A stretch of 11,204 nucleotides of DNA from NCBI GenBank assembly GCA_000002435.2, contig AACB03000029.1. One strand, given 5' to 3'. Made by a program: the position numbers and the translations under genes. Source of the DNA: Giardia intestinalis. Taxonomy: Eukaryota. Shown in pieces: positions 1-11,204 of this stretch; the first letter of the stretch is position 1; every line of letters starts with the position of its first letter. The notes under the pieces were generated by a model. The model saw only the letters and a program-made list of their open reading frames with translations. It was not told where the DNA came from and made no database searches.

Positions 1-1026
1 AGAAGTTCCTCCACAGGCAGTATCATCTTCACAGATCTTGGTGCATGTGACAGAGCCAGTACTGCCCTCCTTGCGATAGTTAGGCTTACAGTCAGTGCAC
101 TTGAAAGCACCGTTGTTAGAGCAGACACTGCAGCCTTCGCGACCCTTATCGTCTACGCTATCGCATGGGACGCACTTCTTCCCCTGTTGATCTGTAGTAG
201 TTACTAAGAAGTATCCAGTCTTGCAGGTTTCACACTTATTTGGATCACCAGCAACAGAGCATGTGGCACAGTTATCACCACACTTGTCTGTACATGTACT
301 AGTACCACTATCAAAGAAGTATCCATCGAGACAGGCTGAGCAGGTTGGATTGTCACTTCCTGTTTTCGTACATGTCTTGCAGTTGGCCTTTCCTTCGTTA
401 CCAAGAGTTGAATCTGTCACATCACTACAAAGAGCACACGTTTTGTCCTCCTTCATAAATAAGGCCTCGTCAGCGCCCTCGCATCCTTCAAGCGTCTTCG
501 CCACGCAGGTCGATGTCCCGTCGAGGGCCGTCCTGGGGGTCTTATTGGTCCCGCAGTTAGTGCACTTCGGCTTCCCCGTGGCCTTGTCGAAGGAGCATGC
601 CGTGCACTCTGCGTGTATCGTACTACATGCCTTGCATGTTCCCGACTCCGGGTCAGCATAAGTGTTTCCATCGCATCCAGTATCTTGTACACATTGATTA
701 CTCTTCAGGTACTTCCCCTCTGGGCACGATGTACAATGATTCTGACCACTTCCATCGCAGGTCAGACAAGCTTCATTACATTTGACACATGTCTGAGAGT
801 TCTTGTAGTATCCATCTTGGCACTCTGTACACGTGGCAGGTCCTGGACTACTGTCTGACTTGGTACACTGTGCGCAGTTAGCCACCCCTGTATATCCATC
901 TGCCCCATTGACATCATGACAGAGGATGCACTCACTACCAGGCTTCTGAGGTGTAACTGGGTTCTTGAACAGGCCGTTAGCTGTCTTACAAGCAGTGCAC
1001 CACTCCATCACTGGCTGCCTGTGCAT
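1..1026 (-). CDS. vsp: VSP-family cysteine-rich surface protein, N-terminal about 340 codons of a cassette whose 3' part lies left of the window (cassette A'); paralog of cassette F
   Basis: Bases 1-990 are >99% identical to 9354-10343. The frame is the minus frame with plus triplets at positions 1 mod 3, and it encodes a CXXC-rich protein identical to the N-terminal part of ORF 8631..10238. The in-frame upstream stop TAA is at plus 1048-1050, with in-frame ATGs at 1024-1026 and 1006-1008. This edge-truncated ORF is not listed in the ORF track. Confidence 0.7.
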   Translation of the reverse strand, partial: MHRQPVMEWCTACKTANGLFKNPVTPQKPGSECILCHDVNGADGYTGVANCAQCTKSDSSPGPATCTECQDGYYKNSQTCVKCNEACLTCDGSGQNHCTSCPEGKYLKSNQCVQDTGCDGNTYADPESGTCKACSTIHAECTACSFDKATGKPKCTNCGTNKTPRTALDGTSTCVAKTLEGCEGADEALFMKEDKTCALCSDVTDSTLGNEGKANCKTCTKTGSDNPTCSACLDGYFFDSGTSTCTDKCGDNCATCSVAGDPNKCETCKTGYFLVTTTDQQGKKCVPCDSVDDKGREGCSVCSNNGAFKCTDCKPNYRKEGSTGSVTCTKICEDDTACGGTS

Positions 1027-1077
1027 ATCACACTCCACTATCACACATTATCACCCACTATCACCTTCTATCACCCA
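1026..1077 (-). repeat. Inter-cassette junction J1: five copies of a (C)TATCAC core at 10-12 bp spacing (1026, 1039, 1049, 1059, 1069)
   Basis: Read directly from the sequence: 'atatcacactccactatcacacattatcacccactatcaccttctatcacccattg'. The other junctions carry 3-4 copies of the same motif. Confidence 0.8.
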
Positions 1078-1086
1078 TTGTACAGC

Positions 1087-1093
1087 ATTCACT
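1087..1093 (-). promoter_or_regulatory. Giardia polyadenylation signal AGTGAAT (AGTRAAY) for cassette B, 7 nt 3' of the TGA stop
   Basis: Plus strand 'attcact' is the reverse complement of AGTGAAT. The minus-strand context is TGA-CTTGGGT-AGTGAAT, which is close to the extended VSP poly(A) motif ACTYAGRTAGTRAAY. Confidence 0.75.
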
Positions 1094-1100
1094 ACCCAAG

Positions 1101-2831
1101 TCACGCCTTCCCCCTGCACACGAACCACCAGCAGAGGAAGCCCACGAGGCCCCCCACGACAGCGATGACAGCCACGGAGATCCCCGCGACGGCCCCGTGG
1201 AGAGCCCGCTCCTGTTGGTGCCAGAGGACACACACATGCCATCCCTCGGGACATAGCCCTCCTCGCACTCCCCCGCAGACGCCCTCTGCGCTGCACCGCA
1301 TGCACCTCTCTATGTCACAGACAATGCACTGGGTGCCGTCCAGGCTGGGTCTCTGGTCTTTATTGGTACATGCCTCACACTTGTTGTCTGCGCTGCAGTG
1401 AGAGCAGCCCTGGGCCGGACACACATAGCAGGTGCTTCCAGCCATGTTGGGCTTCTTATTGTCCTCAGCACACACCTCGCACATCCCGTCGATGGCGCAG
1501 CTCTTGCACCCGCCGACCGCACACAGGGTGCACCCGCTGCCATCCTTGTTGGGCTTCTTCGTCTTGTCGCACGCACTACAGACCGCCGCGGCCATCGCAT
1601 TGGCGGCTGGCGCCTGCGGGGCCGCGCACGCCGTGCAGTCTAGCACGCCGACGTACGCCTTGTCGCCCGCGGTCGCTCCCACAGGGTTGCCACAGGCAAG
1701 CACGGACTGCTGAGCAGCAGAGTCCCCAGGAATCTTGAAGTAGCGCCCGACCGGTGTGGTGCAGAACCCACTTGGAGCCGCAGAGCACATGAGGTTGCCA
1801 GGAGCCTTCGACACATCATAGCAACCACCCATATAGAGGAAGTAGTTGTTGGTGCACCGCGTACATACGCCATCGGCGCAGGTATTACCTGCAAGTGCAT
1901 TGGTGCACTTCCCATTAATAGGGCCATAGCCGGCGCCAACACACTTTGAACAGTAAGAGAGCATGCTGCCGTCGTTGCCGACCACGATGGCGTCGCAGGC
2001 CCCTGCTGTCCCTCCACATGCAGTCTCATCTTCACAGGTCTTTGTACATGTGAGGTCGCTAGGTTCTCCGCTGGGTCTGTAGTTGGGCTTACATTCAGTG
2101 CATTTGAGGGACCCCACGCCGCCTGTGCACTCGGCACAGCCTGGAATCCCACTTGTCTCGTCATCACAGAGAACGCATGTCTTAGGCGGGCCATCCTTAA
2201 GGAAGTACCCCGGCATGCATCTTGTACATGTGTTGATTTGACCCGCTGTTCCGCACTCTGCGCAGTTTCCTGTGCAGGCCTCGCAGGCGTTTCCGTTGAC
2301 TTTATACCCGTCGACACAAGCCTCGCAGGTGCCTTTTGCGGTGCACAGCTTGCAGTTCTGGACTCCGCCCTTACCATTGTCGCCGCACTGCACGCACTTC
2401 GAGGCGTCGTAGAAGTGCGTCTTGCCCACTTTGCACTCGGCCTCATCAACACAGGTCGTTGTCCCATCCAGCTCGTCTCTGACCGTCTTACTACCGCAGT
2501 CGGTGCACTTCGGCTTTCCCGTGGCGTCGTCGTATGCACACGCGGTGCATCCTTGTATCTCACTGCAGGCCTTACAGGTCCAGGTCTTCTTGTCCGCATA
2601 GTTACCATTGTCACATCCACCAGCATCTACACAAGTGTTACCATCCTTCAGGTACTTCCCCTCAACGCAGGCGGTACACTGAGTCGGAGTATCAGCTGAG
2701 CAAGCAGAGCAGCCGTCTCCGCACTTCACACATGCACTGTCCTTCGTAACGAACCCTGCTTGACACTCTGTACACGTGGCCGGTCCGCTAGTGCCCGTGT
2801 GGGAGCATTCTGAGCATCCAGCGACTCCCAT
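1101..2831 (-). CDS. vsp: Variant-specific surface protein cassette B (576 aa from first ATG). The open frame actually runs upstream to 2975 with no ATG and begins 'WSEICTKAEGGLCTACKTANGLFKNPDATPEKGSECILCSDTTDRNGV-MGVAG...'
   Basis: This is ORF 1101..2831. It has CXXC motifs throughout, GGCY in 'YMGGCYDVSKAPG', and the C-terminus '[28 protein letters not shown]'. No hydrophobic leader follows the ATG. The in-frame upstream stop TAG is at plus 2976-2978. Confidence 0.85.
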   Translation of the reverse strand: MGVAGCSECSHTGTSGPATCTECQAGFVTKDSACVKCGDGCSACSADTPTQCTACVEGKYLKDGNTCVDAGGCDNGNYADKKTWTCKACSEIQGCTACAYDDATGKPKCTDCGSKTVRDELDGTTTCVDEAECKVGKTHFYDASKCVQCGDNGKGGVQNCKLCTAKGTCEACVDGYKVNGNACEACTGNCAECGTAGQINTCTRCMPGYFLKDGPPKTCVLCDDETSGIPGCAECTGGVGSLKCTECKPNYRPSGEPSDLTCTKTCEDETACGGTAGACDAIVVGNDGSMLSYCSKCVGAGYGPINGKCTNALAGNTCADGVCTRCTNNYFLYMGGCYDVSKAPGNLMCSAAPSGFCTTPVGRYFKIPGDSAAQQSVLACGNPVGATAGDKAYVGVLDCTACAAPQAPAANAMAAAVCSACDKTKKPNKDGSGCTLCAVGGCKSCAIDGMCEVCAEDNKKPNMAGSTCYVCPAQGCSHCSADNKCEACTNKDQRPSLDGTQCIVCDIERCMRCSAEGVCGGVRGGLCPEGWHVCVLWHQQERALHGAVAGISVAVIAVVGGLVGFLCWWFVCRGKA

Positions 2832-2975
2832 GACCCCGTTTCTATCTGTCGTATCAGAGCACAGTATGCACTCACTACCCTTCTCTGGTGTTGCATCAGG
2901 GTTCTTGAACAGGCCGTTAGCTGTCTTACAAGCAGTGCACAGTCCTCCCTCAGCCTTTGTGCATATCTCACTCCA

Positions 2976-10238: not shown

Positions 10239-10388
10239 CCCTGTATATCCATCTGCCCCATTGACATCATGACAGAGGATGCACTCACTACCAGGCTTCT
10301 GAGGTGTAACTGGGTTCTTGAACAGGCCGTTAGCTGTCTTACAAGCAGTGCACAGTCCTCCCTCAGCCTTTGTGCATATCTCACTCCA

Positions 10389-10413
10389 CTATCATACTAT
10401 CACCCTCTATCAC
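10389..10413 (-). repeat. Junction J6: in-frame stop plus CTATCA(C) repeats at 10389, 10397 and 10407
   Basis: The plus strand reads 'ctccactatcatactatcaccctctatcacacattg', identical to J4. Confidence 0.75.
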
Positions 10414-10425
10414 ACATTGTACAGC

Positions 10426-10432
10426 ATTCACT
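10426..10432 (-). promoter_or_regulatory. Polyadenylation signal AGTGAAT for cassette G
   Basis: 'attcact', 7 nt 3' of the stop at 10440-10442. Confidence 0.75.
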
Positions 10433-10439
10433 ACCCAAG

Positions 10440-11204
10440 TCACGCCTTCCCCCTGCACACGAACCACCAGCAGAGGAAGCCCACGAGGCCCCCCACGACA
10501 GCGATGACAGCGACGGAGATCCCTGCTATGGCACCAGTACTGAGGCCGCTCTTGTTGCCCCCGCTGGGCTTGGTGGACACGCACGCCTCACCCTCCAGCC
10601 TGTAGTCGTCCCCACACTGGCCGCACTTGTTCTCCTCGCTGCACCTGACGCACCCGTCGATATTGCAGGCGATGCACTTCGTTCCGTCTGTGTTCGGCCT
10701 CTGGTCTTTACTGGTACAGGCCTCGCACTTATCGCCTGCTCCACAGTGCGAGCATCCGTCAACGGTACATGCGAAGCACCCGCTCCCAGCCAGGTTGGGC
10801 TTGTTGTTGTTGGTACACGCTGTACACACAGCAGCAGTCATACCAGTCTCGATGGAGCTGCTGGGGCCGTACATGCCGAACAGCCATCTACCCCCACATA
10901 TGCCTTAGAGGTATCACCAGTGCCTACTAGTGTGCCAAGGGAGTTGCTACATGCTAATACAGACTGATTCTGATTGGTTGCCCCAGGGACTATGAAGTAC
11001 CTATTGTTGGCATTAACAGCGTACAGACACCGTTGGCTGCTGTCTTGCACAATATGTTGTCCAGGTACTGTATCAACCTTGTAACAACCTCCCATATACA
11101 AGAAGTAGTTGTTAGTGCATTGTGTACATACACCTTGATCACATTGATTATTTGCTTTAGCACTATTACACTTCCCATCTATAGGATACGTATTAGCTTC
11201 TCCA
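10440..11204 (-). pseudogene. vsp: VSP cassette G, a 3' partial copy of cassette C (offset about +7413) running off the window end and disrupted by three single-base indels
   Basis: Bases 10440-10853 are near-identical to 3027-3440 and 6747-7160 and encode '...[61 protein letters not shown]...CRGKA*'. Upstream there is a 1-bp deletion near 10855-10880. 'agcgtacag' at about 11028 corresponds to 'agcggtacag' in C. 'gcacaatatg' at about 11050 corresponds to 'gcacatatg' in C. Confidence 0.65.

Follow-up and report, generated by a model that had tools for sequence, protein, structure and literature searches.

The locus described here raises the question of what purpose, if any, is served by a row of surface protein genes that lack their own beginnings. 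The window, by which we mean the whole 11,204-nucleotide (nt) stretch of Giardia intestinalis contig AACB03000029.1 (assembly GCA_000002435.2), consists of seven head-to-tail units of variant-specific surface protein (VSP) sequence, all on the minus strand. Stop-to-stop reading frames and a search for the C-terminal CRGKA-TGA motif delimit five complete units (B to F) and two that are cut by the window ends (A and G). Units B, C, E, and F match the Pfam VSP family PF03302 at 115 to 143 bits (cut-off, 31.4), and the open cassettes contain 12.0 to 13.1% Cys, 25 to 31 CXXC motifs, and one GGCY motif each. The closest database matches are VSPs of G. intestinalis WB (assemblage A1), and the window is a stretch of a G. 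intestinalis assemblage A1 (WB-like) array of VSP pseudogenes (ψVSPs). A first-pass annotation of the sequence had likened these units to the silent donor cassettes of the VSG, vlsE, and msp2 systems. We consider it very probable that they form a linear ψVSP array of the kind already known, derived from one founder truncation and tandem amplification, subject to ongoing segmental exchange, and composed of cassettes that are silent as protein genes.

The ends of the units are uniform and agree with the co-oriented VSP array and canonical 3′ ends that had been described. CRGKA is followed by TGA at six sites, and AGTGAAT begins exactly 7 nt past each TGA (Table 1). The canonical VSP C terminus, comprising a hydrophobic transmembrane (TM) segment, CRGKA, a stop codon, and a polyadenylation [poly(A)] signal of the AGTRAAY type, is present, out of frame with the body in unit D and partly so in units B and G. 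In units F to B, the frame reopens directly after a TAG, within Cys-rich sequence that reads WSEICTKA or WSVICT(K/Q)A. This reopening had been noted correctly, except that the position given for the D/C junction (4887) was a few bases off, the stops there being TGA at 4886-4884 and TAG at 4883-4881. All three frames are closed inside each spacer or a few codons beyond it. The junctions are 93 to 100% identical to one another; therefore, the shared lack of a start reflects one inherited founder event and not six independent ones. The spacers are built of a GTGATAG repeat with a period of ~10 nt, whose copy number varies (4.3 copies at B/A and an 8-nt variant at D/C, as identified by Tandem Repeats Finder [TRF]) and which, within the window, is confined to the junctions (7 matches versus 0.01 expected). 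The searchable literature gave no mention of this repeat in Giardia, only primer sequences.

None of the cassettes has a usable start codon, leader, or initiator, as the first-pass annotation had stated. The initiator element (Inr) PyAATGTT, which is found at the start codon of 135 of 136 intact WB VSPs (10.1101/2022.03.07.483299), is absent from both strands of the whole window, as is even AATGTT. The first in-frame ATG lies at codon 48 in units B and D (2831 and 6551), codon 78 in unit E (8345), codon 190 in unit C (4310), and codon 193 in unit F (9809), and the in-frame ATG of unit A (1026) opens the sequence MHRQPVMEW. No hydrophobic stretch follows any in-frame Met, with a best 10-amino-acid (aa) Kyte-Doolittle mean of ≤1.63 versus 2.2 to 2.4 for real VSP leaders, and no N-terminal 14- to 17-aa signal peptide stands at an initiator Met in the cassettes. 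A leader hidden in another frame was also considered, and the six ATG-plus-hydrophobic matches were all off-frame, inside cassette bodies, and unrelated to VSP leaders. A leader exon or intron upstream of each cassette, which had been named as an observation that would overturn the leaderless reading, was not found at the junctions by intron motifs or leader scan: GTATGT is restricted to the interior of cassette bodies, the vicinity of the junctions lacks any CTRAC...CAG 3′ motif, and the junctions carry no Giardia-type intron signals. The cassettes are promoterless, leaderless VSP copies with defects that are compatible with silence; they cannot make surface protein themselves and are probably untranscribed.

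Transcription without secretion had been raised as an alternative; in Giardia muris, ψVSP arrays were reported to be essentially untranscribed (PMC7641422). Transcripts could also matter as RNA, if sense or antisense read-through of the array fed the Dicer/RNA-dependent RNA polymerase/Argonaute pathway that has been proposed to silence all VSPs but one. Antisense transcripts are abundant over VSPs, with sense reads exceeding antisense reads in only 12 to 20% of them; noncoding VSP-like repeats (Gireps) are transcribed from both strands and have been proposed as sources of small interfering RNA (PMC2817412); and each cassette has kept its poly(A) signal. We nevertheless consider a role as regulatory RNA source improbable, as the window contains no promoter-like element and no noncoding RNA gene detectable by Rfam (gathering thresholds) or tRNA scan, and the G. 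muris arrays are reported to be silent (PMC7641422).

How much of the VSP gene is missing? The cassette boundary had been placed at about the signal-peptidase cleavage site, and this placement did not hold. In an alignment with six intact WB VSPs (P0001, P0006, P0014, P0046, P0074, and P0075), column 104 is where the cassettes start, past both the leader and a conserved N-terminal module of ~90 aa (CQxDGxH...GDGYFLFMGGCYK), whose pairwise identity averages ~80%. The same breakpoint emerged when the DNA was aligned with that of an intact VSP in an ENA Giardia assembly (L001). Mean identity along the cassettes is 0.74 to 0.81 at the 5′ box, 0.9 at the 3′ end, and 0.45 to 0.6 between them. Each cassette is a variable body with a conserved 5′ flank (the SEICT...GSECILC box) and a conserved 3′ flank. 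Hypothetically, these flanking boxes or the GTGATAG repeat might guide conversion.

The junction itself can be compared with what follows a VSP gene elsewhere. The stand-alone VSP of L001 shares with the array only the TGA, the 7 nt, and AGTGAATGCT, after which the two diverge; in the array, AGTGAATGCT is followed by a short tract of the ~10-nt GTGATAG repeat and then by a VSP body. We propose that, at the founder junction, a VSP 3′ end (TM-CRGKA-TGA, 7 nt, AGTGAATGCT) would have been joined through a short GTGATAG-repeat filler to the interior of another VSP, ~104 codons in, with loss of initiator, ATG, signal peptide, and conserved N-terminal module. The resulting unit may then have multiplied by tandem duplication or unequal crossing-over, with later reshuffling by segmental gene conversion, both between cassettes and with intact VSPs elsewhere. 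WB proteins of the old annotation that start with MLYSDSDS...GGDSDS..LLFMGGCY represent the GTGATAG repeat read in another frame, from an ATG inside AGTGAATG; thus, other WB arrays use a longer variant of the window's junction, and the variant in the window looks like a derived deletion.

The cassette bodies have exchanged sequence with each other and with intact, leader-bearing VSPs elsewhere. A nearest-neighbor sliding-window map shows abrupt shifts from 100% to 55 to 80% identity between cassettes, and long blocks are identical between units (Table 1). The identical runs were reached by 0 of 5,000 permutations; in this test, the shorter runs are somewhat inflated by the conserved 3′ end. 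The first-pass annotation had suggested a search for leader-bearing VSPs whose bodies match cassette segments, and three were found. Unit B (2051->1272) equals residues 433-692 of intact VSP P0001, which is encoded on the same chromosome 5 contig, over 260 aa without a mismatch. Unit D (6566->6141) equals residues 148-289 of intact VSP P0006 (GL50803_00114674), encoded on a chromosome 3 contig, over 142 aa. Unit E (7769->7239) shares three exact blocks of 53, 42, and 69 aa with residues 369-545 of intact VSP P0014. These blocks fit ongoing segmental exchange and do not prove programmed switching.

Two deposited proteins correspond to array sequence. The RefSeq "High cysteine protein" XP_037902139.1 (KAE8304682.1; 378 aa; P0002) is the internal-ATG open reading frame (ORF) of a B-type cassette (2831->1707). 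It is a mis-called ψVSP fragment. It sits on a 4.02-Mb chromosome 5 contig and is 100% identical to unit B over 375 residues before diverging, which indicates that the window is another copy or another assembly of that locus; the next accession on the contig, KAE8304683.1, is intact VSP P0001. The GenBank entry "VSP S7" (AAN52102.1; Q8I8W2; 539 aa), which starts with MGVAGCSECSH, corresponds to unit D at 6551-5278, its residues 1-425 being exact except for a one-base frameshift at ~5901. Since VSP S7 has no leader, it probably represents a ψVSP copy from an array; should it derive from cDNA, transcription of a cassette would follow. A literature search for "VSPS7" gave no match.

Arrays of other Giardia lineages appear to stem from a different truncation event, as indicated by a second type of junction in other homologues and in L003, a human-gut metagenome contig from Nepal. 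The start VNDPAGV.IDSLCRP..., which is found in 19 of 126 homologues (P0012, P0013, P0023-25, P0039, and 13 others), represents the fusion of an AGTGAAC poly(A) signal to a site just ~50 residues into the N-terminal module. Most of these homologues carry a partial-VSP annotation, and a few are misnamed (Dynein light chain, Queuine tRNA-ribosyltransferase). The same type of junction lies at 2150-2350 of L003, which was judged to be assemblage-B-like from its similarity to these proteins. At 4101-4160 of L003, a VSP with an aberrant C terminus is separated by 42 nt from a subsequent leader-bearing VSP, and the start of the latter reads CAGTGTT (GTG) versus the Inr consensus CAATGTT. As an assemblage-B-like pair with a different junction, L003 has no bearing on the array and was set aside as a comparator; L002 contains a single VSP and no array.

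The state of the reading frames is mixed, and the description of the cassettes as otherwise intact could not be upheld. Only units C, E, and F are cleanly open, whereas units A, B, D, and G carry frame-breaking indels, located at ~1020-1040 (the start of unit A), ~1275 and ~1190 in unit B, ~5901 and ~4985 in unit D, and ~11050 and ~10855 in unit G, where the lesion at ~11050 is compensated by another indel a few codons farther on. The pair in unit B is compensating and scrambles ~25 aa ahead of the TM segment. Most of these lesions are ±1 changes in short base runs, mainly of G or GG (G4/G5/G6, GG to G, T to TT). PacBio homopolymer frameshifts are documented in the WB reference (PMC7000408), and the independent GenBank sequence of VSP S7 reads through the unit D frameshift at ~5901. 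Therefore, some of the frameshifts are possibly assembly errors, and their value as proof of decay is weakened; the lesions may reflect genuine slippage or else leftover long-read errors in a repeat that is difficult to polish.

Could the truncated starts, or even the array, then be a mis-assembly of repeated VSP genes? The kind of indel just described and the PacBio frameshifts would fit such an artifact, as would the departure of P0002 from the window after residue 375. However, the window contains the same junction six times, array junctions built on this repeat family appear in independent Sanger-era annotation (the MLYSDSDS... proteins), and Adam et al. (2010, PMC2996952) used directed sequencing and optical mapping to verify arrays. 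We regard an artifact of this kind as extremely unlikely.

Apart from the indels, the cassettes retain a coding signal. Among units B, C, E, and F, the ratio of nonsynonymous to synonymous substitution rates (dN/dS) is 0.18 to 0.42, and synonymous sites are close to saturation; of 84 Cys columns, 67 show no variation; and no unit contains a nonsense substitution, though 4.2% of random substitutions would make a stop. The low dN/dS and the lack of nonsense substitutions indicate that the bodies diverged as coding sequence. The cassettes are recent copies, or are continually refreshed by conversion, or are selected to stay open, and the data are compatible with all three.

The array could also be a functionless by-product, that is, debris of unequal crossing-over that looks fresh only because gene conversion from functional VSPs overwrites it. 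The frame-breaking indels in units A, B, D, and G, the single founder event behind all junctions, and the near absence of ψVSP transcription in G. muris (PMC7641422) are consistent with this explanation, which we view as possible but doubtful. ψVSP arrays are abundant (208 ψVSPs versus 133 VSPs in WB [PMC7000408]), they occur across assemblages with lineage-specific junctions (the VNDPAGV.IDSLCRP type among the homologues), and they are present in G. muris too (PMC7641422). Persistence at such a scale in a very compact genome hints at a benefit.

Several observations weigh against the account of a silent array shaped by ongoing exchange, or at least limit it. The sharing of blocks with intact WB VSPs is established at the protein level, and the data fit transfer in either direction, from the array to an intact gene or the reverse, equally well, so that we can only infer a direction of exchange. 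The amount of decay is uncertain, since some frameshifts may be assembly errors. Moreover, low dN/dS and the lack of stops would also be expected of very recent, role-less copies of functional genes.

A more active role would make the array a programmed donor archive, in which gene conversion copies cassette bodies into VSPs that carry an Inr, a leader, and the N-terminal module during infection or switching, as for VSG, vlsE, and msp2. The SEICT...GSECILC box and the GTGATAG repeat would provide upstream homology, and TM-CRGKA-AGTGAAT would provide downstream homology. Features of donor-cassette systems (VSG, vlsE, msp2, and pilS) are found in the window, namely, promoterless truncated copies of the variable part and blocks common to cassettes and expressible genes. 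The anatomy of a variable body with two conserved flanks fits such a role, as do the exact blocks of 142 to 260 aa shared with intact VSPs on the same and another chromosome and the frames free of nonsense substitutions. The silent, promoterless, leaderless copies that the first-pass annotation postulated are borne out, but the donor idea is not new: it was raised for linear arrays by Adam et al. (2010, PMC2996952) and for G. muris in PMC7641422. Against a programmed archive, VSP switching is reported to leave both the sequence and the location of the DNA unchanged (PMC2996952), transcription from the gene's own locus is seen for 130 of 136 intact VSPs, and isolates Be-2 and WB have their VSPs in syntenic positions, an argument for slow turnover (PMC11169602). 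In addition, Giardia has no known dedicated expression site, and frame-breaking indels are present in four of the seven units. A switching mechanism like those of VSG, vlsE, or msp2 would run against the published mode of VSP switching, and a programmed archive seems to us very unlikely. The broader proposal that arrays are active donors, with segments copied at a measurable rate during infection into VSPs bearing an Inr, a leader, and the N-terminal module, is quite unlikely because switching is reported to occur without DNA change, transcription comes from each gene's own locus, and synteny is kept between isolates. If true, it would add a DNA-level layer of diversification on top of Giardia's epigenetic/RNAi switching.

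A comparison with known systems places the window among the linear arrays of G. intestinalis WB. The shared features include head-to-tail order, stop-containing spacers of ~50 to 60 bp, a conserved CRGKA 3′ end, downstream members without an Inr, a proper start codon, or a signal peptide, long stretches of 100% identity between members, and blocks in common with distant VSP genes. The window likewise has seven co-oriented units with spacers of 51 to 53 nt (published mean, ~60 bp) and no Inr, start, or signal peptide. The published definition also places a normal VSP, with its upstream region and Inr, at the head of an array; the array in the window continues past both window ends. We see no essential difference; the window adds the details of a ~104-residue truncation, a junction shorter than the MLYSDSDS...LLFMGGCY type, and GTGATAG spacers. 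The ψVSP arrays of G. muris (Xu et al. 2020, Microb Genom 6:mgen000402) are similar in that signal-peptide-less pseudogenes arose by duplication, a reservoir function has been proposed, and recombination or gene conversion with intact VSPs is indicated, there by phylogenetic evidence. They differ in being almost all telomere adjacent, in having a CRGK tail, in accompanying few intact VSPs, and in having been shown to be untranscribed.

Silent VSG arrays of Trypanosoma brucei (with 70-bp repeats) are also large tandem archives of promoterless, often defective antigen genes with mosaic relationships, in which a variable body lies between a conserved repeat on its upstream side and a conserved 3′ end. 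However, VSG switching by gene conversion into telomeric expression sites has been demonstrated in T. brucei, whereas Giardia has no known expression site and is reported to switch without DNA change. The vls cassettes of Borrelia burgdorferi and the msp2 cassettes of Anaplasma are likewise contiguous, co-oriented, and devoid of 5′ ends and leaders, and they correspond to no more than the variable portion of an expressed surface protein. Giardia, however, has >130 VSP genes that can each be expressed independently, whereas the Borrelia and Anaplasma systems rely on one expression locus, into which segmental conversion has been seen experimentally to run in one direction.

ORFs on the plus strand, the longest of 257 aa (e.g., 8013-8786, 10269-10967, and 916-1401), run antisense to the VSP bodies and are probably by-products of the Cys-codon-rich composition and not genes. 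The units, spacers, repeats, and identical blocks are listed in Table 1.

Table 1. Units, junction spacers, and blocks of identity in the 11,204-nt window
Feature	Position	Strand	Description
Unit G	11204-10440	minus	Partial ψVSP cassette, cut by window edge; TM-CRGKA-TGA end (TGA 10442-10440); ~three frame-breaking indels
G/F spacer	10389..10439	minus	51 nt: 7 nt, AGTGAAT poly(A) signal (10432-10426), GTGATAG repeats, terminal TGA-TAG
Unit F	10388-8631	minus	ψVSP cassette; 585 open codons, WSEICTKA to CRGKA-TGA (first base of TGA, 8633)
F/E spacer	8580..8630	minus	51 nt; AGTGAAT 8623-8617; GTGATAG repeats
Unit E	8579-6747	minus	ψVSP cassette; 610 open codons, WSVICTQA...CRGKA (first base of TGA, 6749); blocks in common with intact VSP P0014 and array member P0028
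E/D spacer	6696..6746	minus	51 nt; AGTGAAT 6739-6733; GTGATAG repeats
Unit D	6695-4934	minus	ψVSP cassette; two single-base frameshifts; CRGKA-TGA (TGA 4936-4934) out of frame with body
D/C spacer	4881..4933	minus	53 nt; AGTGAAT 4926-4920; 8-nt-period TGATAGTG repeat variant
Unit C	4880-3027	minus	ψVSP cassette; 617 open codons, WSVICTKA...CRGKA (first base of TGA, 3029)
C/B spacer	2976..3026	minus	51 nt; AGTGAAT 3019-3013; GTGATAG repeats
Unit B	2975-1101	minus	ψVSP cassette; 624 open codons; compensating +1/-1 frameshift pair, juxtamembrane segment scrambled; first base of TGA, 1103
B/A spacer	1048..1100	minus	AGTGAAT 1093-1087; expanded GTGATAG repeat (TRF period 10, 4.3 copies)
Unit A	1047-1	minus	Partial ψVSP cassette running off window; complex indel at start, giving MHRQPVMEW
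GTGATAG repeat	1035-1077, 2984-3000, 4879-4895, 6704-6720, 8588-8604, 10397-10413	minus	Spacers
F = C block	F 9920-9109 = C 4421-3610	minus	812 nt, 100% identical
C = A block	C 4514-3855 = A 660-1	minus	660 nt identical
F = A blocks	F 10353-9922 and 9920-9354 = A 1000-569 and 567-1	minus	432 + 567 nt, 100% identical
E = C block	E 7038-6747 = C 3318-3027	minus	292 nt identical
G = E block	G 10823-10553 = E 7130-6860	minus	271 nt identical
D = B block	D 6615-6374 = B 2895-2654	minus	242 nt identical

Both the observation of such arrays and the donor-cassette hypothesis are already published. Adam et al. (2010, BMC Genomics 11:424) reported that more than half of the WB vsp genes belong to linear arrays whose spacers have a mean length of ~60 bp, that downstream members lack the Inr, and that members have long 100%-identical regions in common, and they proposed that the arrays are recombination cassettes (a reservoir) or discarded genes (PMC2996952). 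The WB annotation of Xu et al. (2020, Sci Data 7:38) lists 133 VSPs and 208 ψVSPs (PMC7000408). Rodriguez-Walker et al. (2022) described pseudogenes that miss their 5′ portion and lie in multimember arrays, and they found that the former "High cysteine proteins" are mostly pseudogenes (10.1101/2022.03.07.483299). The G. muris arrays were described as engaged in gene conversion, and the analogy with VSG and Pneumocystis was drawn there (PMC7641422). A 2025 population-genomic study found VSPs to be enriched among gene-conversion tracts (PMC12669663).

Within the account that we prefer, a known type of linear ψVSP array with one founder truncation, the role of the array, if any, may be that of a passive sequence reservoir that would give new chimeric VSPs to expression-competent genes over evolutionary time, with no programmed switch. 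Such a reservoir and no role at all are both compatible with the data. Nothing in the analysis of the window alters the current understanding of VSP biology. Nevertheless, ψVSP arrays outnumber the functional VSP repertoire in WB (208 versus 133), and the window provides a quantified example in which a single truncation was inherited by all units, the cassettes consist of a variable body with conserved flanks, and blocks have been exchanged with intact VSPs. Together, the single truncation, the cassette anatomy, and the block exchange make the reservoir hypothesis concretely testable.

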